From assembly GCA_028865095.1 (NCBI GenBank), contig JAGWLA010000001.1, positions 47,244-111,243 of the forward strand: a DNA stretch of 64,000 nt, given 5' to 3'. This document shows positions 1-59,195 of this stretch, piece by piece; the stretch's first letter is position 1; each line of letters starts with the position of its first letter. A program made the position numbers and the translations under genes. Below the pieces are notes generated by a model, which was not told the DNA's origin, did no database searches, and saw only the letters and a list, made by a program, of their open reading frames with translations. Origin of the DNA: Patescibacteria group bacterium (lineage in GTDB: Bacteria > Patescibacteriota > Minisyncoccia > Phycocordibacterales > PALSA-1337).

Positions 1-2
1 AC

Positions 3-1094
3 GAGGTCGCGTTCCAAGGGAAGCTCTCCGAGCCGTTCAACTTCTCCGGCGGCTCGGGGCGGTCATTCGACTACCGCGGCTATCTGGCGAAAGACGACAT
101 CTATTATGAGATGAAGAGCGCCGTCGTCTCGTCGGATGGCTCGCGCGCGTCGCTGACATCCATCCTCTATGGCCTGAAGCGCTCCTTCGTCGCCCATCTC
201 GAGTCGGCTCTCGGCGAGCCGCATGCAGCCCTCGCGGCTGGGCTGGTGGTAGGGGAGAAGGCTGCTCTCGGCAAGGACTTGCTCGCTGATTTCAGGACGG
301 TCGGGCTCATCCACATCGTCGTGCTCTCGGGCTTCAATATCACCGTCGTCGCGGTGGCCATGCGGCGCATCCTGTCGTTCCTGCCCCGGGTCTGGGGCAT
401 CGTCATCGGCGGAGCGGGCATCGCCCTTTTCGGGATCCTGGTCGGCGGCGGAGCCACCGTAATCCGCTCATGCTTCATGGGGATCGTCGCTCTGGTCGCC
501 GACCTCATCCGGCGGGATTACAGCGTCCATAGAGCGTTGGGGTTCGCCGCGCTGGTGATGCTCATCGAGAGCCCGCTCGTCCTGCTCCATGACCCGTCCT
601 TCCAGCTGTCGTTCTTGGCGACAGTCGGGCTTGTCCTTCTCGCGGGCCCGATCGGCGCCAGGCTCGGCTGGGTCCCGGAGCGTTTCGGCATACGGGAGAC
701 CGTGGCGGCCACCCTCGCCACCCAGGTCTTCGTGTCCCCCTACATCCTCTATATGATGGGGCAGATATCGCTCATAGGCGCAGCCGTCAATATCCTGGTC
801 TTGCCGTTCATCCCCGCTACCATGCTGGCGGTCTTCCTGACCGGAGCAGCCGGCTTCGTCTCGGCCGCCCTGTCGCAGGTCGCCGGCTGGGCGGCGCACC
901 TCCTGCTCTCGTACGAGCTCTTCATGGTCTGGCATTTCGCCCGAGTGCCGTTCGCTGCGGCGTATGTCCCGCCGTTCCCGTTCTGGTGGGTGGCCGTGTT
1001 CTATGCGGCGCTCGCCGGCGGATACCTCGCCATCAAAGCGCGCGCCAAAAAGGGCGGAGACAGGCTTCCGCTTCCGTCTCCGCCCCGCGCGTGA
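3..1094 (+). CDS. comEC: ComEC/Rec2 competence membrane-channel domain, 5'-partial (open frame continues upstream of window)
   Basis: Frame is open from position 3 with no stop before the listed Met. Multi-TM protein with a GLIHIVVLSGFNIT segment typical of the ComEC competence domain. Confidence 0.65.
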   Translation, partial: EVAFQGKLSEPFNFSGGSGRSFDYRGYLAKDDIYYEMKSAVVSSDGSRASLTSILYGLKRSFVAHLESALGEPHAALAAGLVVGEKAALGKDLLADFRTVGLIHIVVLSGFNITVVAVAMRRILSFLPRVWGIVIGGAGIALFGILVGGGATVIRSCFMGIVALVADLIRRDYSVHRALGFAALVMLIESPLVLLHDPSFQLSFLATVGLVLLAGPIGARLGWVPERFGIRETVAATLATQVFVSPYILYMMGQISLIGAAVNILVLPFIPATMLAVFLTGAAGFVSAALSQVAGWAAHLLLSYELFMVWHFARVPFAAAYVPPFPFWWVAVFYAALAGGYLAIKARAKKGGDRLPLPSPPRA

Positions 1095-1109
1095 CGCGCC
1101 TCCCCCGCG

Positions 1110-1718
1110 CTATCCTTGCGCCCGCTTGAAGTTGTCTTCGATGGCTGCCCAGTTCAGGTTGGCGAAGAAGTCGTCTATATAGCGCTTCTTGCCGGACGGC
1201 TGATAGTCGGCCACGTAGGAATGCTCCCACATGTCCAAGCCGAGGATCATCGCGCAGCCGTTGAAGTGGCCGAGATGCTGCTCGTCGACCCAAGAAGTCA
1301 TCAGGCGCCGGTCGGTGCGGTCATACCAAAGGACAGCCCAGCCGATGCCGCGAACGGAAGCGGCCATAGCCTTGAAGCCGGCGATGAATTCATCGAACGG
1401 GGCGCAATCGGCTTCGATGGCCGCGCGGAGGGGGCTCCCTTCGGCGAGGGGAGCCGGCCCTCCTTCGAGCGAGGAGAAATAGACTTCATGATTGCGCATG
1501 CCGTCGTATTCGAAGCTCAGGCGGCGCCGCAGCTCGCCGATGACGTACGCGTTCGCTTCGCGGTCCTTCCGATATTCCACGATCTTGTCTTGGATGGCGT
1601 TAGCGTTCTTGACGTAGCCTTGATAGAGCTTGATGTGCTCTTCGACGGTCGTGGCCGATATGCCGGTGAGGGCGGGGATCTTGAATTCTCGCGGAGTGAA
1701 TTGTCTCATGGTGTTCAT
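1110..1718 (-). CDS. sod: Fe/Mn-family superoxide dismutase
   Basis: C-terminal DMWEHSY motif, GWAVLWYD and NHEVYF segments match Fe/Mn SOD. Start chosen at MNTMRQFT (ATG 1718); the ORF upstream of that looks spurious. Confidence 0.85.
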   Translation of the reverse strand: MNTMRQFTPREFKIPALTGISATTVEEHIKLYQGYVKNANAIQDKIVEYRKDREANAYVIGELRRRLSFEYDGMRNHEVYFSSLEGGPAPLAEGSPLRAAIEADCAPFDEFIAGFKAMAASVRGIGWAVLWYDRTDRRLMTSWVDEQHLGHFNGCAMILGLDMWEHSYVADYQPSGKKRYIDDFFANLNWAAIEDNFKRAQG

Positions 1719-1824
1719 GTGTGATGTTAGCTGTCGATTAATGAGCCGATGGCATAGGTTGATTTTACCTTTTTTTGATGGAGATTTGAAAGCGGCTTGA
1801 GCGTTCCTTGAGGAGCGCCGGCAT

Positions 1825-2748
1825 ATGCTGTCATCGTGCATGGAGAAAGGCGCATCGAATAAAGTGATCGCCATCGCGACGTGCGCGGCTGCGCTCGCCT
1901 CGATCGGCGGCTATGTCTGGCATGCCTCCATACGCCCGCCTGTGCTCGAGATATACGTCTTCGATACGCCGGGCGCCCCATCCGTGCTGGTCAGGACGCC
2001 CGACGATAGGCGCATCCTCATAGACGGCGGTTCGAACGGCTCCGTGGTCAGGGGGCTGACGGAAGCTCTGCCGTTCTATTCCCGGCGGATAGACGCCGTC
2101 GTGCTCACGAGCGCCGACGCGGCGCATGCCGCCGGCCTCGTCGGGGTGACGGAGCGGTATGCGGTCGGCGCGGCGCTCGTGCCATCGCTCGACCCCGTCT
2201 CTCTCGGCCTGGCGAGCTCGACCGACCCCGCCTGTCAGGCGCTCTTCAGCGCGCTCGCCGCGAAGGGAACGCCGGTCAAGCCGGTCTCGGCAGGGCAGAC
2301 GATCGATCTCGGCGGCTCCGTCGCCATGGACGCGCTCTTCCCGGCGCCCGCGGAGAGCTTCGCTTATTCCCGTGCCAGCCCGCCGATGATGCTCGTCGCC
2401 ATACGCTATGGCCGGACCAGCGCCATCCTGGGCGGTTCGGCGAGCGTCAAAATCCAGAAGAGCGTCGCATCACGTCTCGCCCCCGCCGACGTCCTGATCG
2501 TCTCGACGAGCGCTCTGGCGTCGAATCTGGCGCGCGAATTCCTTTCCGCCGCCGCGCCCCGCTTCCTCGTCTACGCGCGCCCCGTCGGGAAGAACGGCGG
2601 GAAAGCCGGAGCTGCGGGCGAGAAGCATGAAGCCGACCCTTTGGCCGGCTTCATGGAAGATCATCGGTTCGATATCAGGGAAGGGGGAACGGTCAGGATC
2701 GTCTCCGACGGGTCCTCCGTCAGGGCCGAAAAAATCGGGCCTATATGA
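1825..2748 (+). CDS. Stand-alone ComEC-type metallo-beta-lactamase-fold domain protein with a degenerate metal-binding motif
   Basis: ILIDGG...IDAVVLTSADAAHAAG aligns to the ComEC MBL domain motif (ILIDAG...LTHPDADHIGG) but HxHxDH is degraded to SADAAH. A GAGGAG Shine-Dalgarno-like sequence lies 8 nt upstream of ATG 1825. Confidence 0.55.
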   Translation: MLSSCMEKGASNKVIAIATCAAALASIGGYVWHASIRPPVLEIYVFDTPGAPSVLVRTPDDRRILIDGGSNGSVVRGLTEALPFYSRRIDAVVLTSADAAHAAGLVGVTERYAVGAALVPSLDPVSLGLASSTDPACQALFSALAAKGTPVKPVSAGQTIDLGGSVAMDALFPAPAESFAYSRASPPMMLVAIRYGRTSAILGGSASVKIQKSVASRLAPADVLIVSTSALASNLAREFLSAAAPRFLVYARPVGKNGGKAGAAGEKHEADPLAGFMEDHRFDIREGGTVRIVSDGSSVRAEKIGPI

Positions 2749-2983
2749 TGCCGGCGTCGCGGAGAGCGCGGAACGCGCCCTTCTTGGCGATGGTGCGGAG
2801 GCCGCGCGCCGAGACCGTGAGGCGGACCGACTTCTTGAGCTCGGGCACGAAGACCGTCTTCTTCTGGAGATTGGGATAGCGGCGCACCGTCCCGCACGGA
2901 TTGAATTGCGTGGCGCGGGTGCGGTTAGAATACCTGCCGCCCGTCATCGAGCCCCTCTTGGTGATGTCGCATATCTTTGCCAT
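2741..2983 (-). CDS. rpmB: 50S ribosomal protein L28
   Basis: MAKICDITKRG...RVSARGLRTIAKKG matches the L28 family. The ORF upstream of this Met is spurious. Confidence 0.85.
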   Translation of the reverse strand: MAKICDITKRGSMTGGRYSNRTRATQFNPCGTVRRYPNLQKKTVFVPELKKSVRLTVSARGLRTIAKKGAFRALRDAGII

Positions 2984-3001
2984 AGTGGGCCATATGCTAT
3001 C

Positions 3002-3658
3002 ATGGGCTGCACGGAATGTAAATACAACCGCATGATAGCCCTCATATACATCGTCATCCTCATATTCTCGGTCATCATCCATGAAGTCTCGCATGGCTAT
3101 ATGGCCGACCGTCTCGGCGACCCGACCGCCCGCCTCTCGGGAAGGCTGACCCTCGACCCGCTCAAGCATATCGACCCCATCGGCTCCGTCATCGTGCCGC
3201 TCGCCACCTATCTTCTCGGAGGATTCGCGTTCGGCTGGGCTAAGCCGGTGCCTTACAATCCTTATAATCTCAAGAACAAGCGCTTGGGCGAGTTCCTGAT
3301 CGCCGCGGCGGGCCCGGCCTCGAATCTCGTCCTGGCGCTGATCTTCGGCCTGGTCATACGGCTCGTCGCGAGCGGGGCCGTCTCTGTGGACGCGGCCGTC
3401 GCGGCTCCTTTCCTGACGGTCGTATCGTACGTGGTCGTCATCAACATAATCTTGGCGATATTCAACCTCATACCGCTGCCGCCTCTCGACGGGTCGAAGC
3501 TCCTATTCTCGATCCTGCCCGCTCAATACGGGCGTGCGCGCTATATCCTGGAAGCGTATGCGCCTTTCTGGGTCCTCATCGTGGTCTTCTTCCTTTGGCA
3601 GCTCGTCAGCCCGGTCATACCTTTCATCTTCAATCTATTCACCGGCATCGGCTCCTGA
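3002..3658 (+). CDS. M50 family (site-2 protease-like) membrane zinc metalloprotease
   Basis: HEVSHG (HExxH) motif inside a TM helix, multi-TM, about 210 aa. Start could be ATG 3002 or 3032. Confidence 0.75.
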   Translation: MGCTECKYNRMIALIYIVILIFSVIIHEVSHGYMADRLGDPTARLSGRLTLDPLKHIDPIGSVIVPLATYLLGGFAFGWAKPVPYNPYNLKNKRLGEFLIAAAGPASNLVLALIFGLVIRLVASGAVSVDAAVAAPFLTVVSYVVVINIILAIFNLIPLPPLDGSKLLFSILPAQYGRARYILEAYAPFWVLIVVFFLWQLVSPVIPFIFNLFTGIGS

Positions 3659-3850
3659 AAGAAGCTCCCTCAGCCTTTCGCTTGCGCAGCTCCTTCTTCC
3701 GTGATATCGTGCTCCCACTGCCGGAAGCGCACGGAGATATCCGTGGACGGCACGAAAACGCAATTACCAGCCCCGTTTGAGTAATCGTCCAGGCCGTCTC
3801 GGCCGACGACGGTGAACCATCAGGCGGGAAGATCGAAAAACGCATTTATC

Positions 3851-4270
3851 ATGCCTACTATAAATCAGCTCACCAAGTCCCATCGCGCTCGTTTCAAGCG
3901 GAAGTCGAAGTCCGTCGCTCTGACGCGCACTTTCAATTCGATCGAGAACCGCCCGAGCTTCTTCCCGGCTCCCTTCAAGCGCGGCGTCTGCGTGAAGGTC
4001 ACCACTAAGACCCCTAAGAAGCCGAACTCCGCCATCCGAAAGATCGCCCGCGTCCGTCTGTCGAACGGCATGGAAGTGACGGCCTATGTCCCGGGCATGG
4101 GGCATAACCTCCAGGAGCACTCCGTCGTCCTGCTCCGCGGCGGCCGCGTCAAAGACGTCGGCCTCCGTTACTCGGTCGTGCGCGGCGTCCTGGACTGCGC
4201 CGGCGTCGAGGCCCGCAGGAAGGGCCGCAGCCAGTACGGCAACAAGAAGCCTAAAGCCGCTAAAGCCTAA
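3851..4270 (+). CDS. rpsL: 30S ribosomal protein S12
   Basis: MPTINQLTK...PKKPNSA...LRGGRVKD is near-identical to the S12 consensus, with a short N-terminal insertion. Confidence 0.96.
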
Positions 4271-4279
4271 TACACCACC

Positions 4280-4750
4280 ATGCGACGCAAACTCAACATC
4301 AAGCGCGAGCTGAAGCCGGACATGACCTATCAGTCGCTCAAGCTCGCCAAATTCACCAACTACGTCATGGAATCGGGCAAGAAGACGGTCGCCCGCGACA
4401 TCGTCGCCGACTGCATGGCCGCCATCAAGGAGCAGGCCAAGGTCGAGAATCCTCTCGAGCTCTTCGAGGAAGCCCTTCGCAACACGGCTCCGGCCATGGA
4501 GGTCCGTTCCCGCCGCGTCGGAGGCGCCAACTACCAGGTCCCTCGCGAGGTCAGGCCCGAGCGCAAGCAGGCGCTTTCCATGAAATGGATCATCGAGGCC
4601 GCCCGTTCCAAGAAGGGCAAGCCTATCGCCTTGAAGCTCGCCGACGAGATCATCGCCGCTTCCAAGAACGAAGGCGAAGCCGTCAAGAAGCGCGAGAACG
4701 TCCACAAGATGGCCGAGGCCAACAAGGCATTCGCCCACTTCGCCTGGTAA
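4280..4750 (+). CDS. rpsG: 30S ribosomal protein S7
   Basis: S7 family sequence directly downstream of rpsL. Confidence 0.95.
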   Translation: MRRKLNIKRELKPDMTYQSLKLAKFTNYVMESGKKTVARDIVADCMAAIKEQAKVENPLELFEEALRNTAPAMEVRSRRVGGANYQVPREVRPERKQALSMKWIIEAARSKKGKPIALKLADEIIAASKNEGEAVKKRENVHKMAEANKAFAHFAW

Positions 4751-5893: not shown

Positions 5894-7153
5894 ATGCGCA
5901 GGCATGACCCAGACTTCCCGAAAGCCATAGTGCATATCGACGGAGATTCGTTCTTCGTCTCGTGCGAGCTGACTCGCCGGCCGGAGCTGAAAGGCCGGCC
6001 ATGCGTGACGGGAATGGAGCGGGGGATCGCCACAGCGGCTAACCCGGAGGCCAAAGCCCTCGGCGTCATCAGGGGCATGCGAGTCAGCGACATCCGGCGC
6101 CTCTATCCGGGAACAGTCATCCTCGAGTCCGACTACGGGCTCTATCGCGATATCGCCGGCAAGATGTACGAGATCGTCCGGCGCTACGCTGACGACGTGG
6201 AAGAATACTCGATCGACGAATGCTTCGCTGATCTGACCGGCCTCGACCGCCCGTCCCATACGACTTACGAAGCCATGGCCCGGGCCATCCAGGCCGACCT
6301 TCACCGGGAGCTCGGAGTGACATTCGGCGCCGGCCTCGGGGTCAATAAGGTCACCGCCAAGATCGCCTCTAAATGGCGCAAGCCGGCAGGCTTCACGGTC
6401 ATCCGTCGCGGGGATATCCCGCGCTTCCTCGAGGCTCTGCCTATCGGCAAAGTCTGGGGCATCGGAGGCCGCACGACGGTCTCTCTCCGCAGCCTCGGCA
6501 TCGTCACCGCTCTCGACCTGGCCCGCAAGGACCGGGCCTGGGTGGACGAGCGGTGCGACAAGCCTTTGCGCGAGATATGGGAAGAATTCCAGGGCGCGTG
6601 CGTCAAGCCGGTGGTCGGAGGCTCCGAGCAGCACGGGTTCGCGTCCGTCCAGCGCACCCGCACTTTCTGGCCCGCCACTGCCGACCCGGCGTTCCTTTGG
6701 TCCCAGGTCTCATCGCACGCGGAAGACGCATGCGAGAAGCTGCGCGCCGGCGGCCGGCTCGCGCGCCGCGCTTCGATCATGCTGAAGACCCGAGATTTCT
6801 CGTATCTCAGGAGCGAAGCGGAGCTCCCCGATCCGACGGCCGCTCCCGAAGAGGTCCTTCGGGCCCTTCGGCCGCGCTTCGAGGCGCTCTTCCGCCCTGG
6901 CTTGGCCTATCGGGCGAGCGGCATCTCGCTTCATGGCCTTGCCGTCGAAGAAGCCATGACCGGGAGCTTGTTCGCTCCGCCGGAGCGCCTCAGCAAGTCT
7001 CGCGCCGTCCATGCCGCCGCCGACCGCTTGGCGGCCCGCTTCGGCAAGGGCATCGTTTTCCTCGGATCCAGCTGGCAAGCGGTCAAAGAGGGCAGGAAGA
7101 GCGGGCGGCCGCGGGAGAAGCCGTCGCGGGGAGGGATCAGGTTCCTGGAGTGA
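5894..7153 (+). CDS. dinB: DNA polymerase IV (Y-family translesion polymerase)
   Basis: IVHIDGDSFFVSCE and SIDECFADLTG catalytic motifs of the DinB/UmuC family. Confidence 0.85.
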   Translation: MRRHDPDFPKAIVHIDGDSFFVSCELTRRPELKGRPCVTGMERGIATAANPEAKALGVIRGMRVSDIRRLYPGTVILESDYGLYRDIAGKMYEIVRRYADDVEEYSIDECFADLTGLDRPSHTTYEAMARAIQADLHRELGVTFGAGLGVNKVTAKIASKWRKPAGFTVIRRGDIPRFLEALPIGKVWGIGGRTTVSLRSLGIVTALDLARKDRAWVDERCDKPLREIWEEFQGACVKPVVGGSEQHGFASVQRTRTFWPATADPAFLWSQVSSHAEDACEKLRAGGRLARRASIMLKTRDFSYLRSEAELPDPTAAPEEVLRALRPRFEALFRPGLAYRASGISLHGLAVEEAMTGSLFAPPERLSKSRAVHAAADRLAARFGKGIVFLGSSWQAVKEGRKSGRPREKPSRGGIRFLE

Positions 7154-12804: not shown

Positions 12805-15800
12805 ATGAAAAAATCGACCATATCGTTTATCTCGGCATTCGGCATCATCGCCTCTGCGTTCTTTTTGAGTCTTCCTAGCGCGGTTCAGACTGTGAATGCG
12901 CAAAGCGCCGCTTCGACAAGCCCTGTGCTAGCGATCAGACAGGTGCCCGTGACGCACCCTTTGCTTATCGGCGAAAAACAAGCCCTTTTCGCCTCTTTCA
13001 ATCTGAGCGCAGCCTCTTCCTCTAAGGATGCGATGATATTCCTCTTCAAGATGACCATACCGATGTCGTGGAGCTTTGGCGACAAGAACGGTCATGTCAC
13101 ATTGGCAGATGAGATAAGCAGGCTGTCTAACTGCGGCCTCTATTCTGGGGCTACCAAGCTGGCTTCCGGGCCCAATGGGATCGGTACCCCCGATACGGAG
13201 CAGCTTTTCCTCCTCAATTCTGGATCGGGCTTGACCGTGAAAGCCGGTACGCAGACCCAGATAGATTTCCGCTGCGATTTCTCGTCAGCCGCCATACCAT
13301 CTGGAACGACGTACAAATATGAGTGGACTCTGGATCCGAACTACACGGAAGTATGGTCGCCAGTGAACGGGGCACTTGCAGATTTCGGCCGTCCCATATA
13401 CGCGACCACGCAGACACCGACGATATCGACGGCCGAAGGCGCCTCGTCATATCCGGTCGTCGTCAATATCTATCCGCCAAGCAGCAGCAATTCCTATCAG
13501 GTCGGAAACACCGTCAATTTCGTGGCGCAGGCATCGACAATGACCGCCCCGGTCGCTTTCTCTTGGGATTTCGGTGACGGTCAAAGCGCTACTGCGCAGC
13601 AGATAGGACATACCTATTACAAAGCGGGGGCTTACAAGGCGACGGTCACCGCTACGGATAGCGCTGGCCATATCTCCGCGCCGGTAGTTACCGAAGTCAA
13701 TATAACGCAGGCCGATCAGAGCGGATGTTATTCGTTCACTCGCAATCTCGGCCTCGGGTCGACTGGCTATGACGTCGTCCTTCTCCAGAACTGGCTCATC
13801 GCTCACGGGTTCGACATCCAGGCCATATCGAGCGGTCAGCAGCAAAAAGGATATTTCGGTTATGAGACTTCAGCTGCTCTTCAGAGATACCAGGCTAGCA
13901 TAGGGCTCCCTGCCACGGGATTCTTCGGTTCCATGACCATTTCGGCGATCGGCTCTAGCTGCGTCTCGAACCCGACGGCCCAGTCTTCGGGGTCGGCATC
14001 TGGGGCACAGCTGAGCGCCTCGCTCGATTCCTCATCGCCTCTGTCGAGCACGATCCTGATATCCACGGGCAGCCAGACTCAGGATGTGCCTCTCGAGGTC
14101 TTCGACCTCAGATCGAATGGGGCCACCTCGACTCTTCAGGCATTGAAGATCGACATCAACACGACCGGCCAGCCTTTCCCATCCATATTCAGCAATATAA
14201 CCATCAAGATCGGCGGCCGCACCTACACACCCTCTTCCATGGTCTCAGCGCCAGGCGGGACATACGCTTACGCAGCATTCGAGAACCTCGGAGCCTATCT
14301 TCCGACGAACGAATATGTCCCTGTGACCGTCTATGGGACCGTCGCTCAAGATACGAACGGCTTCCTCGACGGGTCGACCGCGACAGCGAGCCTTTTCACT
14401 GCCAGCACGACGGCAGTAGGCGCGAACGCGGCCCCTGTCCCCGTGGCGAGCTACCTCCCGGTCGTCGGCAACCAGATGACGTTCACCTCGAGCGGCCTCA
14501 TGGTGACCAATACAGCGGTCTCTCTCGGATCCCAGTCGCCCTCATGCGGATCGGGGGCCAGCAACGTCCCGTGCACTCAGCCGGTCACGCTCTCCTTCTC
14601 TCTCACCGCGGGGAACTATCCGATGTATATCGCTGCGAGCGCAATGGGCGCGAGCAGCTGCCCCGTAGGATATACATGCTCCTCTGCGAGCCCCTTCGTC
14701 TTCGCTGGTAAGGCAGTGAATGTCGCCCCAGTCTTCGCTGGCTCTGTCGCTAGCCCGGCCCAATTGCCTGGCGATGGGCCCGGCAGCTATCTGATCCCTG
14801 CCGGCTCGACCCGTTCGTTCACATATTACGGCTCTGTGAGCAATGCTAATTTGGCGGGCGGTTCGTATCTGATCGCCGTCACTGGGATCAAGTTCGGGAC
14901 CTCGACATCGAACCTGTTCGTCGGCACGATCACGTCCGGTCTCGGCAACCTCGCTACCATGATCAATCTCCCGGCCGGCAATAATAACGGCGGAGGGAGC
15001 CCGATCTCCACTTCATCGCTGTCTATCGGCCCGAACGACCAGGTCCGCACCTTCACCAAATCCTTCATGGCGACCCCGTCGTCCGGCTCGGTGCTTCTGG
15101 CCATCGCTGGCGATAACAAATATCTGGCCATGATCAACGGCGTCCCTGTCGCCGTCACCAGCGGCGAGACGGGATTCTACAATCCGAGGATCGTCGACGT
15201 CACTTCCCATATCGTCCAGGGGAACAACACCATCCAGGTCATCGCCGATAACATGCCTGACGGCAATGGGGCATTCCCGTGGAGCACCAACCCGGGCGGC
15301 GTCATCTTCAAAGTCGCCGGCGGCTCTTGCACCTCGAGCGTCTATTGCCTGAACGGCACTGTGTACGCGGTCAGCAACGGGACCGAGGGCATCGACAGGG
15401 GCTCGTCTGCCGTCATACCGTCTAACCAGCTCTATCCTGCCTGGACTTCGATTCCTGGCGCAAGCTGGGTCTGGGATTCCAACCTGATGGGTTCGAGCTC
15501 GAGCCTGCAACCGACGATCAGCCTTACGATGGATTCCGGGAGCGTCATACAGGCGGGCCAGCATATCGACTTCACGTACACAGTCTCGCCCGCAGGGAGA
15601 TACGACGTGGTGTACATACTCGTCCCCAGCGCTACTACTCCGAGGAAATCGACCGGTGTCGGTTCGAATTACGACGCTTCGTGGGGCGGATATAACATAG
15701 GCGGCTTTTCGCCGAATTATTCGATCAGTAGTTTTACACCCTATGGCGGAATATATATTCCGAGCGATATCCCTAACGGCACGTACTCTCTGACGGTGTA

Positions 15801-16290
15801 CTTGGCCGCATCCGGAAGCACCACCGGAGGCAGCGAAAAGGTGCCGACTCTTGCAGCTGCTAATTCAGGGATGTTCACTGTCACATCTGGCACGACAGTC
15901 AACCAGGCTTCTGTCACCTGTCCCGGCGGCTATATCTGCGTCGTCAATGGCCAGACGCTGTCATGCCCGTCAGGATACGCCTGCTCCTACGCATCGTATA
16001 ACTGTCCTTCCGGTTACGTCTGCTATACCTATAACAAGCCGTATTCTTCGCCTGCGCCGGCTCCGACCCCGTCGCCTTCGCCTGCGAAGACGGTGACCAC
16101 GGTCACGAACCCGTCTCCGACGCCAACGCCAACGCCTACGCCGACCACGACGACAACTTCGACGAAACCTTCGCCGACGTCGAGCCCGTCAGGCAGCCCG
16201 TATCCGTCGTCGTCCTCGCAATCGCTCGGGAATGCGGCTACCCAGCCGGCATCGGCATGGCAAGCTTTCCTCCAGCTGTTCGGATTCTGA
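12805..16290 (+). CDS. Giant secreted surface protein (P2) with PKD domain, peptidoglycan-binding domain, Thr/Pro/Ser linker and repeated CPxGYxC motifs
   Basis: Signal peptide MKKSTISFISAFGIIASAFFLSLPSAVQTVNA. PKD-like FSWDFGDGQSA...TATDSAGH. PG_binding_1-like LGLGSTGYDVVLLQNWL...GYFGYETSAALQRYQ. TPSPSPAKT...PTPTPTPTPTTTTT linker. Confidence 0.75.
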   Translation: MKKSTISFISAFGIIASAFFLSLPSAVQTVNAQSAASTSPVLAIRQVPVTHPLLIGEKQALFASFNLSAASSSKDAMIFLFKMTIPMSWSFGDKNGHVTLADEISRLSNCGLYSGATKLASGPNGIGTPDTEQLFLLNSGSGLTVKAGTQTQIDFRCDFSSAAIPSGTTYKYEWTLDPNYTEVWSPVNGALADFGRPIYATTQTPTISTAEGASSYPVVVNIYPPSSSNSYQVGNTVNFVAQASTMTAPVAFSWDFGDGQSATAQQIGHTYYKAGAYKATVTATDSAGHISAPVVTEVNITQADQSGCYSFTRNLGLGSTGYDVVLLQNWLIAHGFDIQAISSGQQQKGYFGYETSAALQRYQASIGLPATGFFGSMTISAIGSSCVSNPTAQSSGSASGAQLSASLDSSSPLSSTILISTGSQTQDVPLEVFDLRSNGATSTLQALKIDINTTGQPFPSIFSNITIKIGGRTYTPSSMVSAPGGTYAYAAFENLGAYLPTNEYVPVTVYGTVAQDTNGFLDGSTATASLFTASTTAVGANAAPVPVASYLPVVGNQMTFTSSGLMVTNTAVSLGSQSPSCGSGASNVPCTQPVTLSFSLTAGNYPMYIAASAMGASSCPVGYTCSSASPFVFAGKAVNVAPVFAGSVASPAQLPGDGPGSYLIPAGSTRSFTYYGSVSNANLAGGSYLIAVTGIKFGTSTSNLFVGTITSGLGNLATMINLPAGNNNGGGSPISTSSLSIGPNDQVRTFTKSFMATPSSGSVLLAIAGDNKYLAMINGVPVAVTSGETGFYNPRIVDVTSHIVQGNNTIQVIADNMPDGNGAFPWSTNPGGVIFKVAGGSCTSSVYCLNGTVYAVSNGTEGIDRGSSAVIPSNQLYPAWTSIPGASWVWDSNLMGSSSSLQPTISLTMDSGSVIQAGQHIDFTYTVSPAGRYDVVYILVPSATTPRKSTGVGSNYDASWGGYNIGGFSPNYSISSFTPYGGIYIPSDIPNGTYSLTVYLAASGSTTGGSEKVPTLAAANSGMFTVTSGTTVNQASVTCPGGYICVVNGQTLSCPSGYACSYASYNCPSGYVCYTYNKPYSSPAPAPTPSPSPAKTVTTVTNPSPTPTPTPTPTTTTTSTKPSPTSSPSGSPYPSSSSQSLGNAATQPASAWQAFLQLFGF

Positions 16291-16319
16291 GATCTCGCGC
16301 GCTTGAAGCATGAAGGCAG

Positions 16320-16346
16320 AAACCCCCGTCCATCGGGGGTTTCTCG
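16320..16346 (+). terminator. Intrinsic terminator of P2, lying inside the 5' end of the track ORF 16310
   Basis: AAACCCCCG-TCCAT-CGGGGGTTT hairpin followed by CTCG. Confidence 0.45.
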
Positions 16347-16351
16347 CATGC

Positions 16352-16357
16352 TATAAT
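16352..16357 (+). promoter_or_regulatory. TATAAT -10 box 6 nt upstream of ATG 16364 (leaderless start of the glycosyltransferase operon)
   Basis: GCTATAATCCGGCCATG. Confidence 0.45.
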
Positions 16358-16363
16358 CCGGCC

Positions 16364-17731
16364 ATGAAACGATTCCTGCCGCCGGCGCTGGTGGCGCTGG
16401 CGAGCGCCGTGACCCATCTCCTCTATTTCGGATATCCGGCGCAAGTGGTGTTCGACGAGACGTACTCAGGCCGGTTCCTCGGCGACATCTCCCGAGGGAC
16501 GTTCTTCTTCGACGTCCATCCGCCCCTCGCCAAGCTCATCGTCTACGCGTTCGGCCTCTTGACGGGGGCTTCATACGGGGCCGACGTCGGCTCCATCGGG
16601 GACGCTTTGCCGCATTCCCTCGTCCTCCTGCGGATCGTGCCGCTGGCGTGCGGCATCCTTCTGCCGCTCGCCGTCTACGGCATCGCCCGGAATATCGGCT
16701 TGTCGCGGGTCGCGGCGTCGCTCGCAGGATTTGCGGCGGCGTTCGAGAGCTCGCTCATCGTGCAATCGAGATTCATCCTCTTCGACAGCATGCTCCTCAT
16801 CTTCGGCTTCGGCGCCATCCTTTGCTGGCAGGAATATCGCAAGCGACGGGCAGGGAAGCGGCTGTCAGGAGCCGGAGCTTCTTTCTTGGCGATGTCGGCG
16901 ATCCTCGCCGCGGGCGCGTTCTCCGTCAAATGGACGGGGCTGGCCTTCCCGGCCCTCATCCTGCTCTTCGAGGGGCGCGAGGCTCTCCGCCTTCCCGCGG
17001 GCACGGCCATGAAGCGCGTCCGAGACCGGGTCGCGGCCGCGGCCCGCTCCATCGCGCCGTTCGTCGCCGCATTCGCCGTCGCCGGGGCGGCGGTGTATGC
17101 CGGCTCATTCGCCGCCGAGCTCGCCCTTGCCTCCGGCCCCGGTACAGGGGACCAGTTCGTCAGCAGGAGCTTCCATCAGGAAAGCTTTCCGGCGCAGCTC
17201 GTCGATCTGAACGTCGCCATGTATCAAGAGAACGCCCACGGCATGTCTTCCCATCCGTATCAAAGCCCGTGGTGGAGCTGGCCGCTCATGCTCCGGCCGA
17301 TATTCTACTGGGTCGGCTCGGGCGCATACATATATCTGTTCGGGGACCCGTTCACGTATTGGATGAGCGCGGCCGCCCTTCTGGCCGTCTTCGGGCATTG
17401 CTTGTCGGCGAAGCGCCGGGCGCAGGGCGCGGACGCTGAGCGCAGGGAAGCGGGGATATTCATCGCCATCGGATTCCTGGCGAACTATGCGCCTTTCGTG
17501 CTCATCACCCGCCCGATGTTCCTCTACCATTATCAGGCGGCGCTCGTCTTCGGCATCCTGGCTTTGGCCTGGGCGGCCGACCTCGTCCCGGCGCGCAAGA
17601 AGCTGGCCGTCGCCGCGACGATCGCGGCAGCCTGCCTCGCGGGCTATATCTATTGGAGCCCGCTCATCTACGGGACGCATCTCGATCAGGCCCAGCTCCA
17701 AGCGCGGATGTGGCTGCCGAGCTGGCGATGA
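16364..17731 (+). CDS. pmt: Protein O-mannosyltransferase (GT39 / PMT family)
   Basis: VVFDETYSGRF matches the PMT loop-1 DE motif (VFDEVHFG). Multi-TM. Start moved to ATG 16364 downstream of the terminator and -10 box. Confidence 0.7.
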   Translation: MKRFLPPALVALASAVTHLLYFGYPAQVVFDETYSGRFLGDISRGTFFFDVHPPLAKLIVYAFGLLTGASYGADVGSIGDALPHSLVLLRIVPLACGILLPLAVYGIARNIGLSRVAASLAGFAAAFESSLIVQSRFILFDSMLLIFGFGAILCWQEYRKRRAGKRLSGAGASFLAMSAILAAGAFSVKWTGLAFPALILLFEGREALRLPAGTAMKRVRDRVAAAARSIAPFVAAFAVAGAAVYAGSFAAELALASGPGTGDQFVSRSFHQESFPAQLVDLNVAMYQENAHGMSSHPYQSPWWSWPLMLRPIFYWVGSGAYIYLFGDPFTYWMSAAALLAVFGHCLSAKRRAQGADAERREAGIFIAIGFLANYAPFVLITRPMFLYHYQAALVFGILALAWAADLVPARKKLAVAATIAAACLAGYIYWSPLIYGTHLDQAQLQARMWLPSWR

Positions 17732-18900
17732 CCATGAAGGAGCGCGACGGGCTACAAGTGGCGGCAGTGATCATCCCGACCTATAACGAGGCCGGGGCCA
17801 TCGGCGCCCTCCTCGAAGAGGTCGCCGGGATCGCCTCCTCGGGCAGCCGGTGGCGGATAGAGGTAATCGTCGTCGACGGATGCTCCGAAGACGGGACGGC
17901 CGGCATCGTCGAGGCCGCTGCCGCGCGCGGCGCGCTCCGCATCCATCTGCTGCGCGAGCCGGAGCGCCAGGGCATCGGCGCGGCGTATTGCCGCGGCTTC
18001 CGATATGCCATCGAAGAGGTCGGCGCCGACGCCGTCATCGAGTTCGACGGCGATCTCCAGCATCCCCCGTCGCATATACCGCAGCTCTTGCAGGCTCTCG
18101 ACGACGGAGCCGATTATGTGGCCGCTTCGCGGCGCATGGAAGGGGGCTCCGAGCCTGCAGGCCGCAGCGCATTCCGAAAGGCTCTCACTTCGCTCGGCGG
18201 CGGGGCGGCGCGCTTCATCCTGTTCTTCCCGCATGCCGCGTTCCGGCAGGTGACCGACCCGACCACCGGCCTCAAAGCGACCCGGGTCGCCGGCTTCGCC
18301 GACTCGCTCTGCCTCGACCCGTCGAGGCTCGTCAGCCGCGGCTTCGGCTATAAGCTCCAGTGGCTGTCCGAGACGCTGCGCCTCGGCGCGCGCTATCGGG
18401 AGATACCGCTCCGCTTCCAGGACCGCCGGGCCGGCCGCTCGAAGTTCGCCCCTCCCGTCATCGCCGATATCCTCTGGACGTGCGCCGTCGTCCGGGCTTC
18501 CGACCCGCGGACGAAGCGCTTCATCAGGTATGCCGCAGCGGGGTCGGCCGGCTATATCGTGAATGCCGCCGCTCTCGCCCTCCTGTATCGCCTTACCGGC
18601 ATCGAAGCCCTGTCCTGGGCCCTTTCCGCCGAGGCGGCCATCATCTGCAATTACGCTCTCAACAACGTCTGGGCATTCGGCGACCGCCGCAAGACGGGCT
18701 TTTCCAGCTGGTTCGGCGGGTTCCTGGCCTTCAATCTCGCCTCTCTCGGAGCCATCGCCATCGAAGGCGTGTTCGGGCCCCTTCTGACGTCGCTTGTCGG
18801 CCCGTCCTATCGCCAGCTCGTCTTGGCTGCGGTCGTCCTCTTCATGGTCGTGCCGTATAACTGGCTCATGTATAGCCGCTTGATATGGAAACAGCGATGA
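17728..18900 (+). CDS. Polyprenol-phosphate mannose synthase (GT2, Ppm1/Dpm1-like) fused to a C-terminal GtrA-like membrane domain
   Basis: IIPTYNE, VIEFDGDLQHPP (compare Dpm1 DADLSHHP) and a C-terminal GtrA-like 4-TM segment (YAAAGSAGYIVNAAALALLY...ICNYALNNVWAF). ATGA overlap with the pmt stop. Confidence 0.8.
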   Translation: MTMKERDGLQVAAVIIPTYNEAGAIGALLEEVAGIASSGSRWRIEVIVVDGCSEDGTAGIVEAAAARGALRIHLLREPERQGIGAAYCRGFRYAIEEVGADAVIEFDGDLQHPPSHIPQLLQALDDGADYVAASRRMEGGSEPAGRSAFRKALTSLGGGAARFILFFPHAAFRQVTDPTTGLKATRVAGFADSLCLDPSRLVSRGFGYKLQWLSETLRLGARYREIPLRFQDRRAGRSKFAPPVIADILWTCAVVRASDPRTKRFIRYAAAGSAGYIVNAAALALLYRLTGIEALSWALSAEAAIICNYALNNVWAFGDRRKTGFSSWFGGFLAFNLASLGAIAIEGVFGPLLTSLVGPSYRQLVLAAVVLFMVVPYNWLMYSRLIWKQR

Positions 18901-20105
18901 ACAAGGCTCGGAAGAGCGCGCCGCTCCTTCTCGCTCTGGCGGGGACTGTCGCCGCTCTCGTCCCGCAATGCCTGATGCGCGGGAGCCAGGCCGCATATAT
19001 GTTCTTCTATGACAAGCTGACGACGTATCCCGGCGACCTCTGGAATTTCTTCGCCAACTACCTGGCCCACGGCCTGCGCTACCCGCCAGAATATCCGGCC
19101 GGCTTGCGCTTCGTCTACGAAGCCGCCGGCTTGTATCGGATCCACAGCTATGAGGCCTTCTTCGCTTTGAATGCAGCCGTCATCGGCGCTTTCGCGGTTG
19201 CGACGACATGGCTCCTCTATCTGATCTTGCGCGAGAGGGCAAGAAGGGAGGGCGGCCGGATCGAGGCTTCGCGCCTGTGGCTTTTCTGGATCCTGGCGCC
19301 GTCGTTCCTGTTCTATGCCGTCTATAACTACGACATCCCGGTCGTCTTCCTCGCGGTCTTAGGCGTCTTCTTTGCTCTGAAGGGGCGTCCGTATGGGGCC
19401 GTGACGGCTCTCGCGGCAGGGACGGTGGTCAAAGTCTTCCCGATCTTCATCCTTCCCGCGCTCATTTGGATGTCGCCGCGCCATCGCCGGCTGCCGCTCG
19501 CGGCGCTCTTCATCGCCATCGTCGTGGCCCTGAATCTCCCGTATGCCCTGACGGACTTCCATTCATGGATATATCCGTATGTCTGGCAGATATCGTCGAA
19601 TCTCACGACCAGCCCGGCGCAGGGGACTTATTGGTGGATCCTCTACCCGCTGACGGGGAAGCTCACCGGCTGGGTCAGCTTAGGGGCTCTCGGCGCGCTC
19701 TATCTCGCCGCTCTTTGGGGCATGTCGGGGCGGCGCTGGCCGGCGGAAGGGGGGTCGGACCGGGCATTCCTGGGCGCCGCTCTCATCGGGATCTCGCTCT
19801 TCCTGCTCACCGACCGCATATATTCGCCGCAGTATGACCTGTATCTGCTCCCGTTCCTGGTCCTGTCTCCTTTCGTCGTCGACAAGAGGCTCTTCTATGC
19901 CGTAGAGATCCCCAATCTGCTGCTGGTGCTTCTCTTGTTCTATCTGCGCGAGCACTATGTCGCGCTGCAGATGCTCTCTTTTATACGCTACGCAGCGCTG
20001 GCGGGCTTGTCTGTCAAGATGTACCGCGATACAAAGGGCAACCTCTGTCAACGGGAATATGGCTCGAGCGGGCCTGCCTTAGAGGGGACACGGTCTCGCC
20101 TGTAA
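18885..20105 (+). CDS. GT-C fold membrane glycosyl (mannosyl) transferase, DUF2029/GT87-like
   Basis: About 10 TM helices and a YSPQYDLYLLPFL motif. Overlaps the preceding gene by 16 nt. Confidence 0.5.
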   Translation: METAMNKARKSAPLLLALAGTVAALVPQCLMRGSQAAYMFFYDKLTTYPGDLWNFFANYLAHGLRYPPEYPAGLRFVYEAAGLYRIHSYEAFFALNAAVIGAFAVATTWLLYLILRERARREGGRIEASRLWLFWILAPSFLFYAVYNYDIPVVFLAVLGVFFALKGRPYGAVTALAAGTVVKVFPIFILPALIWMSPRHRRLPLAALFIAIVVALNLPYALTDFHSWIYPYVWQISSNLTTSPAQGTYWWILYPLTGKLTGWVSLGALGALYLAALWGMSGRRWPAEGGSDRAFLGAALIGISLFLLTDRIYSPQYDLYLLPFLVLSPFVVDKRLFYAVEIPNLLLVLLLFYLREHYVALQMLSFIRYAALAGLSVKMYRDTKGNLCQREYGSSGPALEGTRSRL

Positions 20106-20156: not shown

Positions 20157-20211
20157 TGCACCCATCATTTTGCTTTTGTTTTTTTAGGCTAGCTATATAC
20201 TTTGTGGCGTA

Positions 20212-23200
20212 TCATGATCCTCTTGGCACAAAATCATCGGAGCATGAGCCTCATGCGTTTGGCGTATGTATCAGTGGCGGCGGTGCTCCTGTTTTTTGTT
20301 TCGGCGCAGATGGCTCGCGCCGACACGTCTTCCGGCCTCATAGGATGGTGGCAGTTCGATGAAGGGTCGGGCAGCACCACCGCCGATTCCAGCGGCTTCG
20401 GCAACGACCTGACGGTCTCCGGCCCTGCATGGGTCTCGGGCCAATCGGGGCAGGCGCTCTCGTTCAACGGCACAAGCGATGTCCTCGATCTCGGGAAGCC
20501 GATCCTTCCCGCGCTGCCGTTGGCGAGCTCGACGACGTTCTCGGCGTGGGTCAAGACCGTCGACCCTGTGCATTGGGCTGGCATCGTGTCGCAGTATAAG
20601 ACTCTCGGCGGCGCATATATCATCCTCCGGGTCAGGCTCGATAACGGCGCCGCCGATTTCACCTTCAAGGATGTCAACGCGAACGAGGTCGAAGCGGTCG
20701 GCACGACCGACCTGCGGGACGGTTCCTGGCATCTCGTCACGGGCGTGATCGACCGTTCGAACAGGCTGGCGCATGTCTACGTGGATGGCGCCGAAGAGGG
20801 GACGCCCGCGCCCGACACGACCAACATCGACATGTCGTTCCCATCGCCGAACAGGGACCTCCAGATCGGCGCCAACCAGACGGGTTTCTTCTCCGGGTCG
20901 ATCGACGATGTCAGGGTGTACGATCGCGCCCTGTCGGCCACGGATGTCGCCGAGCTCCATGCCAATGCCGGCCCTCCTATGCTCACGCTGCAGTCCGCCT
21001 CGCCGGTCAGCTCGACCACGGCGACCCTCAACGCCACGATCATCTCGACCGGCAGCAGCACGGTGACGGTCCGCGGCTTCGAATATGGGGCGACGACGAC
21101 ATATGGAAGCCTCCTCTCGGAGACCGGGAGCTACGGGACCGGGTCGTTCGCTCTGGGCGCGTCGGCGCTGGCGTGCGGCACGACCTATTACACCCGCGCC
21201 TTCGCGACGAACCAGTACGGCACCGCTTCGAGCACGGGCGGCAGCTTCACGACCTCCGCGTGCCCGATGACGCTGCCGGCTGTCGAGAGCTCGTCGACCG
21301 TCTCTGACATCACCCAGTCGTCGGCCACCCTCAACGGCGCCATCGTCTCGAGCGGGAACGGCACGATCACTCAGCACGGGTTCGTATATGGCACGGCTTC
21401 GAACCTCTCGGGCACGGTCGCCACGACGACGGGCGGCCAGTTCGTCGGCACGGGCCCCTTCATATCGTCCTCGGCTCGGCAGATCGCCGGCCTCTCATGC
21501 AACACGACGTACTATTTCGAGGCGTATGCCACTAATGCCATGGGCACGAGCTACGGCTCGATCCTGTCGTTCCAGACCGGGGCATGCTCATCCGGGGGCT
21601 ATTCCGTGTATTACGTCGACCAGGCGTCCGGCAATGACGCGAACGCATGCTCGATAACGTCGAAATGCGCCACCATCGGAGAGGGCATATCGAAGCTTCA
21701 TGCGGGCGACACGCTCGTCATAAGCTCGGGCACGTATCATGAATATATCAACAATTCCATCCCGTCCGGCATCAATTGGGATTCGCCGACGACCGTCGAG
21801 GCCGCTCCGGGCGCGACGGTCGTGCTGGCGCCGACCCTCGCGCAGAACCCGTACCGCGCTCTCTATTTCAGCGGGGCCGGGGTATCGTATATCGTCGTCA
21901 GCGGGCTTACGCTCGATGCGACGAACGTGCAATATGAAGCCGTGAAGGTGACGACGGGGGCCAACCATGTGCGCCTTTCCAATATGGAGATAAAGAATGC
22001 CCCGACTATGGGCATCCTCATGACCGATGACGGTACCTCGTACAACGAGGTCATCGATTCGTATATCCATGACAACGGGAATGATCCGGGCGGCAACGGC
22101 CTCCTGCACGAGATCTATCTTTCGACCAATGCGAATATCATCGACGGCAACACCCTCGATTGCGGGGCGCTCAATCCGGGAGGGAAGGGCATACAGCTCT
22201 ATGGTTCGACGGGCATGAATGACAATATATTCCGCAACAATGTCATCAGAGACTGCTCGACGGGCATAGGCGTATTCGGAGGCACCGGCAACCTTGTCTA
22301 TAACAACATCCTCTACCACCTTCTGATCGGGGTCCAGCTCCAGGGATACGAGGCGCTCGATGGTGCCGGGGTGTATAACAATACGATCTATGACATGTAC
22401 CAGACGGTGGATGGCGGCGGCGTCGGCATCAATGCGGTGAATTCAGGCCTCGGCACGAGCCATGTCAACATCGAGAACAATATCGTGTACCTTTCGTCTT
22501 CGACGCCGGTCATCAATAACAGCGTCGGAGGGGTCACTTCCAACAATCTGACCTCTAACCCCGGCTTCACCGATCCGGCCGCCCATGATTTCAGCATCTC
22601 TTCGACCAGCCCCGCCGTCGATGCGGGCGTGCCGGTGAACGGCGTCGCCGTCGACATCCTTGGCGTGAACCGTCCGCAAGGCTCCGCATACGACATCGGC
22701 GCATATGAATATTTCAGCTCCTCGAACGTGACGGCTCCTACCGTCGGCCAGTCGACGATAACGAGCATCACTGAGTCGTCGGCGTATCTGACGTCCTCTA
22801 TATCGTCGATCGGGGGCAGCGCTGCCACGGCGAGAGGGTTCGTGTTCGGCAGCACGACCGTGTATGAGGCCGGCACAAGCACGGAAGCGGGAAGCTTCCA
22901 GGCCGGCGGGTTCTCTGTCGCATTGAACGGCCTTGCATGCGGCGCTTCGTATCATGTGCGCGCATACGCGGCGAATGTCGCCGGCGTTTCATATGGCTCT
23001 GACGCGACATTCACGACGAGCCAGTGCGCTTCTCCCGATTCCTCGACGACTGACCAGACAGGCGGCGGCTCGACAGGCGGCGGCGGAGGAGGAGGCGGAG
23101 GAGGCGGCGGCTCGACAGGCGGCGGAGGCGGAGGAGGCGCTGCGTACAACGCGCCTACGGCGACGGTCCTTTCCCCTACGTCGGCGCTCGTCTCCTGGAA

Positions 23201-59077: not shown

Positions 59078-59181
59078 ACGCGCCCCTCCGATCTTTTGTC
59101 TTTTGCGCTTACGCGGCCGGCTCGGCCGCTTTTTTGTTGCCTGCCCGCCGTGCCCGGCGGCTTTCAATTCCGGCCGGATTC

Positions 59182-59189
59182 TGTATAAT
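59182..59189 (+). promoter_or_regulatory. Extended -10 (TGTATAAT) 6 nt upstream of the ftsH ATG (leaderless)
   Basis: CTGTATAATCCATCCATG. Confidence 0.5.
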
Positions 59190-59195
59190 CCATCC

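Follow-up and report, generated by a model that had tools for sequence, protein, structure and literature searches.

A split ComEC of Patescibacteria with a conserved metallo-beta-lactamase-like subunit that is probably a pseudo-nuclease

Natural transformation universally uses the ComEC channel for DNA import; in Patescibacteria, gene exchange and perhaps also the supply of nucleotides are believed to rely on DNA uptake. In B. subtilis, L. pneumophila and Moorella, the three-domain ComEC/Rec2 is one polypeptide (PDB 30bt, full length; 9ic4, beta-lactamase-like domain) that combines an OB fold and the competence channel with a ComEC-subtype metallo-beta-lactamase (MBL) module, which is preceded by a transmembrane helix. 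The activity of the M. glycerini protein is abolished by each of the single changes H598A, D602A, H603A and D700A (PMC12455585). In L. pneumophila the pin loop is indispensable. S. pneumoniae ComEC has an inactive MBL domain with two of the seven metal ligands and relies on the nuclease EndA (PMC5031224). H. pylori ComEC is a channel without a fused nuclease domain, and no close ComEC-type MBL protein is encoded elsewhere in that genome (PMC5031224). In Patescibacteria, a split comEC is the standard arrangement (Meheust 2019, PMC6744442). Split genes are not mentioned by Pimentel & Zhang 2018, and no relevant description of a split ComEC or of a ComEC pseudo-enzyme was found among the papers searched.

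The locus studied here lies at the beginning of a 64-kb stretch of patescibacterial DNA (the window). The 3′ part of comEC occupies positions 1..1097 of the plus strand, where frame 3 is open from the window edge to the codon at 1092-1094 (coding 3-1094) and is closed by a TGA stop at 1095-1097. It encodes the end of the OB/DUF4131 region and the Competence transmembrane domain (Pfam PF03772, E = 3.6e-45, 268 of 270 profile positions covered). Only the end of DUF4131 falls within the window. The full channel protein, P0191, from the same 236,652-bp contig, has 457 aa, comprises DUF4131 (PF13567) and Competence, and is 65-76% identical to its relatives. In its AlphaFold2 (AF2) model, residues 38-138 form a beta-rich region; a Foldseek search of structures without the full-length 30bt and 9vc6 matched the model weakly to SSB and to the OB domain of ComEC (9iew). 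The gene that ends at 1094 encodes a channel subunit made up of an OB fold and the competence transmembrane domain. At its C-terminus, a transmembrane helix is followed by a basic, presumably cytoplasmic tail (KARAKKGGDR...), and such tails are net positive in 40 of 42 relatives. It reaches 78 bits against the three-domain ComEC equivalog TIGR00361 (cut-off 190), and the stop codon precludes a C-terminally fused MBL domain. Three ComEC proteins of 602-621 aa (P0282, P0285 and P0295) were considered as MBL fusions and rejected, as their extensions are not MBL domains.

From the end of the channel ORF onwards, all gene coordinates of the original prediction hold. An Fe/Mn superoxide dismutase gene (sod; 1110..1718, minus strand) is convergent with comEC; both of its domains lie above the Pfam cut-offs (Sod_Fe_N, 30.3 bits, E = 5.8e-7; Sod_Fe_C, 74.8 bits, E = 6.3e-21), and NCBIfam equivalog cut-offs were not reached. 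On its other side, sod is divergent from the gene of a stand-alone, catalytically degenerate ComEC-type MBL-fold protein (1825..2748, plus strand; 307 aa), for which NCBI uses the in-frame ATG at 1840 as start (P0001, 302 aa). Both divergent promoters are presumably located in the spacer between the two genes (1719..1824), which contains a promoter-like site at 1790-1762 on the minus strand and the predicted Shine-Dalgarno-like GAGGAG at 1810-1815, 9 nt ahead of ATG 1825. The end of the MBL-like gene overlaps by 8 nt with the convergent rpmB (ribosomal protein L28; 2741..2983, minus strand; Ribosomal_L28, E = 4.6e-13), which is a conserved downstream neighbour.

As proposed, this ORF is translated separately and is homologous to the C-terminal domain of ComEC. 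Pfam detects it by a narrow margin (Lactamase_B_2, 28.7 bits, cut-off 27) and misses most members of its family. In the PDB, however, ComEC was the sole match to a profile of the family (E = 2.5e-17 and 1.7e-15). The AF2 model (pLDDT 91, low in residues 252-270) shows an N-terminal helix (residues 10-35) and an alpha-beta/beta-alpha MBL fold, for which ComEC is the closest among solved structures, rather than an unrelated MBL family. The nearest non-ComEC fold is the phosphorylcholine esterase Pce/CbpE, which has 10-11% identity, no sequence-level match and, unlike the protein studied here, a metal centre. When the channel protein and the MBL-like protein are joined, they align collinearly with full-length ComEC in one continuous stretch (30bt_A residues 142-754, E = 8e-27). 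The junction corresponds to a basic loop between two hydrophobic helices, and the N-terminal helix of the MBL-like protein aligns with the linker helix LGLLAILTLATLLIFLY. This helix contains the only hydrophobic segment of the protein (residues 14-32; 1864..1920), which matches the final membrane-spanning helix ahead of the MBL domain of fused ComEC; the N-termini are net positive in 33 of 42 relatives. Judging from these alignments, the break in ComEC appears to lie in a short basic cytoplasmic loop ahead of the last transmembrane helix, so that the MBL subunit would retain its own membrane anchor. As the anchor corresponds to the helix ahead of that domain in the fused protein, the globular part probably faces outward (N-in, C-out). 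A possible lipoprotein signal (IATC) in the N-terminus was dismissed, because its -1 residue is non-canonical and the cysteine is not conserved across the family.

A comparison with M. glycerini ComEC revealed the loss of the metal ligands. In every motif-covering alignment, TSADAAHAAG (T95 to G104; 2107..2136) corresponds to THPDADHIGG. The observation as a whole lies far beyond chance. H598 is replaced by S96 and D602 by A100, while D600 and H603 are kept as D98 and H101; the H-x-D-x-D-H motif is therefore missing, and across the family the H603 position is mostly Asn. The motif-3 histidine (H667) is replaced by F172 (2338..2340), as it is by Phe in 163 of 190 family members. In the region of the former motifs 4 and 5 (2437..2517), D700 has become S205, and H725, H726 and S728 of H-H-G-S have become T228, S229 and L231. 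In total, two of seven ligand positions are kept, compared with zero to three in 52 relatives. Since the di-metal centre is lost, the protein is predicted to be incapable of two-metal DNA cutting and to lack Mn2+-dependent DNase activity. It is conceivable that the protein still acts as a hydrolase or nuclease through other residues, e.g. by a one-metal or metal-free mechanism involving D98, H101 or the Lys100 found in the family. The cleft is still conserved, and Asp/Glu at the D98 position (125/190) and His at the 725 position (75/190) are fairly common. Yet no invariant position could replace the ligands, the general base D602 has been exchanged for Lys in 100 of 190 members and for Ala in this protein, the motif-3 histidine is usually Phe, none of the seven positions is kept in 16 of the 52 relatives, and single alanine changes at ligand sites suffice to kill the M. 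glycerini enzyme. We thus consider residual catalysis very unlikely.

The degeneration is not confined to the metal site. The aromatic pin loop 2 (N-x-Y/F-G-H/F-P) is absent, and the place that the pin loop, G-x-D-N-(K/R)-(F/Y)-G-H-P, has in ComEC is taken by a variable Lys/Ser-rich loop (residues 252-270; 2578..2634), which in the family is 0-49 aa long with 23% Lys and 0.5% aromatic residues. Therefore, a picture in which everything but catalysis has been kept would be wrong. An R-F-N motif near the C-terminus was examined as a counterpart of the pin loop and rejected, as relatives that keep the motifs align their pin loop to the Lys-rich linker. An analogous case is S. pneumoniae ComEC, whose inactive MBL domain also preserves the full-length MBL fold with most metal ligands replaced. 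Such fold retention with two of seven metal positions would imply a non-catalytic role and an outside nuclease. However, the pneumococcal domain is fused to its channel and has a known partner nuclease, whereas here it is a separate membrane-anchored protein that has in addition lost the pin loop.

The gene order recJ-rnhA-comEC-[sod]-MBL-rpmB-M50 is common to 55 species-level Patescibacteria genomes, with sod at the same position in about 50 of them. The comEC channel gene is found upstream on every contig that reaches far enough, and ComEC is unfused in all 55; an intact fused ComEC was thus not encountered in these relatives. Three of three contigs retrieved via ComEC contain an ORF of about 300-315 aa without Pfam match between sod and rpmB. 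The MBL-like family comprises 209 clusters at 50% identity (E<=1e-30) and is stand-alone in all 150 listed. The split is hence not a local event. Although the source is a metagenome-assembled genome, the chance that a frameshift, a misassembly or a chimeric contig simulates the split is practically negligible: the same split, again with an opposite-strand gene between the two parts, is present in 55 independent assemblies that come from many projects, and both ORFs have proper ends. The comEC ORF stops after a transmembrane helix followed by a basic tail, and the MBL gene has a start codon behind a Shine-Dalgarno-like sequence and encodes a transmembrane helix of its own. The locus also differs from H. 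pylori in that a ComEC-type MBL protein is encoded about 0.7 kb downstream of the channel gene.

The sister group of this family consists of stand-alone patescibacterial MBL proteins that keep the motifs (e.g. P0166, P0185, P0187 and P0190; 7983 matches; 273-320 aa among the 120 listed). They are often named 'ComEC/Rec2 family competence protein' by NCBI, or else 'MBL fold metallo-hydrolase', and share the size of about 290 aa and the N-terminal transmembrane helix with the window's protein. They retain T-H-P-x-x-D-H, G-D-A, H-H-G-S, N-x-Y-G-H-P and R-T-D-x-x-G, all of which are lost in the window's clade. Four of them were looked up; three are encoded just downstream of a comEC channel gene and the fourth contig is too short to show its context. 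At two loci (L060 and L064) the motif-keeping gene directly follows comEC without sod, whereas at a third (L063) sod lies in between. The original prediction had regarded an insertion of sod as a possible cause of gene fission. Since motif-keeping MBL genes adjoin comEC without sod, sod is not the cause of the split. In a neighbour-joining tree the degenerate clade forms a single branch with the sod-less members nested inside. The likely order of events is therefore the split, then the insertion of sod, and then the loss of ligands. The split itself may have arisen by fission from a fused ancestor, or the unfused state may be the ancestral one. In most genomes sod separates comEC from the MBL-like gene by a distance of up to 3.9 kb. 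There, comEC and the MBL-like gene are no longer transcribed together, and the latter has its own spacer shared with sod, which is short in the relatives (median 131 nt).

The degenerate clade evolves faster than its neighbours, yet it is under purifying selection. Values of dN/dS are about 0.07-0.19, which is a rough estimate because dS is near saturation (1.3-2.3 even in the closest pairs); pN is 0.14-0.28 and pS 0.62-0.70. Across 44 MBL-like sequences, 15 columns are invariant. The ORF is intact (~290-356 aa) in 51 of the 55 genomes and C-terminally shortened in four; from these, the gene may be dispensable in some lineages. The shortened versions, the fastest evolution among seven syntenic genes (median identity 0.42 versus 0.58-0.76) and the failure of Pfam to detect most members would fit a pseudogene-like remnant of the ComEC nuclease domain that is en route to loss. 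Nevertheless, we regard such decay as highly improbable, because the ORF remains intact in nearly all genomes despite saturated synonymous sites, pS greatly exceeds pN, some residues are invariant, the fold is predicted with confidence, and the family is as diverse as its 209 clusters indicate. Of the two fates originally envisaged, a decaying remnant and a pseudo-enzyme retained for a structural role, the latter is thus the better one.

We favour, as the probable explanation, a two-subunit ComEC whose MBL subunit is a conserved pseudo-nuclease, maintained by selection at the outer face of the channel. The two-gene layout is the norm in Patescibacteria. One sub-lineage probably acquired sod between both genes, and within it the clade of this genome has lost the di-metal centre and the aromatic pin loop of the MBL subunit. 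The MBL-fold module is kept under purifying selection; anchored by its transmembrane helix and presumably facing outward, it most probably still sits on the outer channel face, beside the OB fold, where the conserved patches P-F-Y-S-R-R-I-D and R-T-P-x-D-x-R might lie at the interface. As the metal site is lost but the gene is kept by selection, the role is probably non-catalytic; the subunit could shape the entrance of the channel, or hold DNA by means of its basic residues and Lys-rich loop. The strand that is not imported might be removed by another nuclease, if any, in the way that EndA acts in S. pneumoniae; none of the EndA type was found among 30 large ORFs scanned in the window.

With the nuclease centre gone and transcription uncoupled from comEC, the protein could also have been neofunctionalised for a job unrelated to DNA uptake, e.g. 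binding or processing an extracellular ligand in a remodelled cleft, or a function co-regulated with sod. The loss of the pin loop would agree with this, as would clade-specific, strongly conserved motifs around the former active site (LFP, F-x-Y-S-K-A-S-x-P-E, K-x-Q-K and R-F-N) and the conserved, short divergent spacer, which stands next to a loose comEC-sod link. But in all genomes examined the MBL-like gene is no more than a few kb away from comEC, a ComEC-type transmembrane anchor is retained, and neither a new catalytic constellation nor a match to another family is evident. Moreover, synteny is general in the small genomes of this group, so that the sod linkage may be meaningless. A new function outside DNA uptake is therefore unlikely.

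The pseudo-nuclease subunit is an incremental point on a known machine and not a new system. In most cases, the 'missing' MBL domain of patescibacterial ComEC is encoded by a neighbouring gene as a membrane-anchored protein, and proteins of the degenerate clade should be annotated neither as 'hypothetical' nor as active 'metallo-hydrolases'. Since one large clade keeps the MBL subunit despite a dead nuclease centre, catalysis seems separable in nature from the other functions of the domain, and the clade offers natural material on roles of the MBL domain besides DNA cutting. A more far-reaching idea, possible but doubtful, is that the whole clade of Patescibacteria (Paceibacteria/Parcubacteria-type) imports DNA via ComEC without a ComEC-borne nuclease. 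The dead MBL subunit would then be a DNA-capture or entrance-shaping module with the flexible Lys-rich loop in place of the pin loop. Strand disposal could be taken over by a novel nuclease; alternatively, there might be no disposal, and the imported strand might be consumed in the cytoplasm by RecJ and RNase H, both of which are encoded directly upstream of comEC.

The features on which the original prediction was built proved accurate on ORF reading and Pfam comparison. The 3′ part of the comEC channel gene runs from the window edge to 1094 on the forward strand (frame 3, stop codon at 1095–1097; PF03772 'Competence', E 3.6e-45), and the reverse strand carries a Fe/Mn SOD gene at 1110–1718 (Sod_Fe_C 6e-21, Sod_Fe_N 6e-7) that converges with comEC and diverges from the gene that follows. 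The spacer beyond sod measures 106 nt and includes GAGGAG at 1810–1815; it is followed by a forward-strand ORF at 1825–2748 that encodes a metallo-β-lactamase (MBL)-like protein of 307 aa with the degenerate motif TSADAAHAAG (residues 95–104, nt 2107–2136, forward strand); the NCBI version (P0001, 302 aa) starts at the in-frame ATG 1840. The 3′ end of this gene overlaps that of the convergent rpmB (L28) by 8 nt (2741–2748). The SOD is divergent, scoring under the NCBIfam equivalog cut-offs, and reads H-I-K-L-Y-Q-G-Y after the first presumed metal-binding His, a stretch that is H-H-x-K-H-H in typical Fe/Mn SODs. By comparison with E. coli SodB, all four ligand positions are presumably present.

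The complete channel protein (P0191), encoded on the same 236,652-bp Patescibacteria MAG contig, comprises 457 aa with DUF4131 and Competence domains and lacks an MBL domain. It is an ordinary ComEC family member, and with 65–76% identity to its relatives this highly conserved subunit looks functional. The assignment of the MBL-like ORF is less obvious from Pfam, where it passes Lactamase_B_2 only narrowly (28.7 bits; cut-off 27). Yet a family profile built from 44 members retrieved only two distinct sequences from the PDB at E ≤ 1, and both are ComEC: the full-length structure 30bt_A (residues 530–747, E 2.5e-17) and the β-lactamase-like domain of M. glycerini, 9ic4 (E 1.7e-15). An AF2 model of the protein is confident (pLDDT 91.4). 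Since methods finer than Pfam all lead to ComEC, assignment to some other MBL family is not upheld, and the protein belongs by descent and fold to the ComEC β-lactamase-like domain family, as had been predicted. Concatenated and compared with the PDB, P0191 and the 307-aa protein gave one unbroken alignment to 30bt_A (142–754, E 8e-27). The junction maps to a short basic loop of fused ComEC, between a hydrophobic helix on the channel side (AVAGYYLALILW in the fused protein, paired with FYAALAGGYLAI in the window) and the helix leading into the MBL domain (LGLLAILTLATLLIFLY, paired with VIAIATCAAALASIGGYVW). The 307-aa protein has a single hydrophobic segment (residues 14–32; AF2 helix 10–35). 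Among relatives, net positive charge marks 40/42 of the ComEC C-terminal tails and 33/42 of the MBL N-termini; the positive-inside rule would then place both newly created ends in the cytoplasm and the MBL module on the outside, as in fused ComEC.

The split extends beyond this genome. All 47 close homologues of the MBL-like protein, from Patescibacteria, are stand-alone (241–343 aa), and an exhaustive profile search yielded 209 clusters (50% identity) at E ≤ 1e-30, with 150/150 stand-alone among the matches listed. Scanning a single genome for each species gave 55 loci that share, where contigs reach far enough, the order recJ, RNase H, comEC, variable insert, sod (reverse), MBL-like gene (forward), rpmB (reverse) and M50 peptidase. 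Throughout these loci, wherever the contig extends enough, comEC encodes DUF4131 and Competence (about 430–490 aa) without an MBL domain. Three more contigs, reached via ComEC rather than via the MBL protein, have the same order; the ORF between sod and rpmB is Pfam-less there (301–315 aa), and one of the three, compared by DNA, is a clear family member. Such recurrence excludes a frameshift or assembly error as the explanation of the split. The MBL domain is commonly encoded next door to comEC rather than missing (cf. Meheust et al.). This two-gene layout is common and implicit in public annotation; among the papers searched, none describes either the layout or the degenerate clade.

The comEC–sod junction (window 1095–1109; other loci include L006, L008, L029 and L053) is an insertion hot spot, with a gap of 0 to 3.9 kb that exceeds 500 nt in 20/51 genomes and holds NADAR, DUF218, PBECR3-like and small ORFs. 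In three relatives the channel protein itself is longer (P0282, P0285 and P0295; 602–621 aa), extended at the C-terminus by about 150 aa ending ...KYLKNFEILWRTAA; this stretch is unrelated to MBL and may reflect fusion of a small gene or a read-through. Immediately upstream of comEC and on the same strand, beyond the window's left edge, lie recJ (5′–3′ ssDNA exonuclease) and an RNase H gene (e.g. 421–4403 in relative locus L001; loci L001–L059), in about 50/55 genomes and 3/3 ComEC-found contigs. A cytoplasmic ssDNA exonuclease adjoining an import channel would fit imported DNA as a nucleotide source.

Insertion of sod had been suggested as a possible cause of the split. This is contradicted by relatives with preserved motifs. 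The weaker matches of the exhaustive search (P0166–P0190, 279–306 aa) share the N-terminal hydrophobic helix and retain T-H-P-x-x-D-H, G-D-A, H-H-G-S, N-x-Y-G-H-P and R-T-D-x-x-G. Gene context was looked up for four such proteins. In L060 the MBL gene follows comEC after 188 nt, and in L064 the order is comEA, comEC, 18 nt, MBL gene, mreB, both without sod; L063 has comEC, sod (reverse), MBL gene and rpmB (reverse), and in L062 the contig ends before the upstream neighbours. Searching with a profile of these proteins yields 7983 proteins, and the best 120 of them are all 273–320 aa; several of the matches listed carry the name 'ComEC/Rec2 family competence protein' or 'MBL fold metallo-hydrolase' (Patescibacteria, Falkowbacteria, Portnoybacteria). 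A neighbour-joining tree unites the degenerate proteins in a single clade, with the preserved-motif group as its sister, and the three degenerate loci that lack sod (L017, L021, L034) fall within the sod-bearing ones. From these contexts and the tree, the most economical order starts with a two-gene ComEC, followed by the arrival of sod in between, loss of the metal centre in one event, and occasional secondary loss of sod.

In M. glycerini ComEC, H598, D600, D602, H603 and D700 coordinate two Mn2+, each of the substitutions H598A, D602A, H603A and D700A eliminates activity, and DNA contacts are proposed for H725 and S728 (PMC12455585). The window protein has S96, D98, A100, H101, F172 (motif-3 His) and S205 (D700) at the ligand sites and T228/S229/L231 at H725/H726/S728. 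The predicted loss of metal ligands is thereby borne out, with 2/7 positions kept (D98 and H101 of H-x-D-x-D-H). Of 52 species-level relatives, 16 have lost all seven, while one survives in 23, two in 11 and three in two; in the family of 190, the general base D602 is replaced by Lys in 100 members and the motif-3 His by Phe in 163. Because the protein lacks the defining catalytic motifs of its family, annotation as a nuclease would be inappropriate, and judging from these residues the subunit presumably cannot perform two-metal hydrolysis. Five sister proteins keep 5–6/7 positions; because their motif-3 residue is Tyr, Trp, Phe or Ser, their nuclease activity is presumed only. The pin loop G-x-D-N-(K/R)-(F/Y)-G-H-P, whose aromatic residues L. 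pneumophila requires for transformation, is replaced in the degenerate clade by a loop of 0–49 residues (median about 20; 23% Lys, 20% Ser, 0.5% aromatic), which carries a net positive charge in 47/50 and has low pLDDT in the AF2 model. The clade has conserved motifs of its own: R-T-P-x-D-x-R, L-P-F-Y-S-R-R-I-D, L-F-P, F-x-Y-S-K-A-S-x-P-E, K-x-Q-K and R-F-N. Other types of MBL enzyme persist in this genome, as a separate β-CASP MBL ribonuclease at 51068–52447 (forward; Beta-Casp 1.5e-30, Lactamase_B, RMMBL) indicates.

A decaying remnant, the other fate considered originally, does not agree with the reading frame, which is intact (283–356 aa) in 51/55 species-level genomes, nor with pN below pS (0.14–0.28 vs 0.62–0.70 in the closest pairs; dN/dS 0.07–0.19, channel 0.07–0.12, both rough with dS near saturation). 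Yet the gene is the fastest-evolving of seven syntenic genes, with a median pairwise identity of 0.42 (ComEC 0.61, SOD 0.65, L28 0.76, M50 0.69, RecJ 0.64, RNase H 0.58), and the constraint on it is thus relaxed, though real. Shortening to 133–265 aa, C-terminally or via internal deletions, in 4/55 species (L052, L053, L056, L057) suggests that some lineages may do without the gene.

We propose that the MBL-like subunit most likely remains an outward-facing partner of the ComEC channel, with a non-catalytic part to play where DNA enters. The nearest parallel is S. pneumoniae ComEC, which likewise retains a full MBL domain with 2/7 metal positions, EndA degrading the non-imported strand (PMC5031224). 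The pin-loop loss counts against a simple version of this partner model, as does the transcriptional uncoupling of the MBL-like gene from comEC in most genomes; the divergent sod–MBL spacer remains short (median 131 nt), in contrast to the comEC–sod gap. Neofunctionalisation, with a role outside DNA uptake, is the principal alternative.

Elsewhere in the window, the ribosomal-protein/EF-G/EF-Tu region is broken up by very large predicted surface proteins with PKD, PG_binding_1, Laminin_G_3, purple-acid-phosphatase-N-like and fn3 repeat domains and by a PMT/GT2-GtrA/GT87 glycosyltransferase trio (interruptions at 12805–16290, 20202–23984 (forward), 40021–41841 (reverse) and 16310–20105 (forward)). 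Ordinary genes include a DinB-type Y-family polymerase (5894–7153, forward), FtsH (59061–61136, forward) and RecG (61267–63579, reverse).
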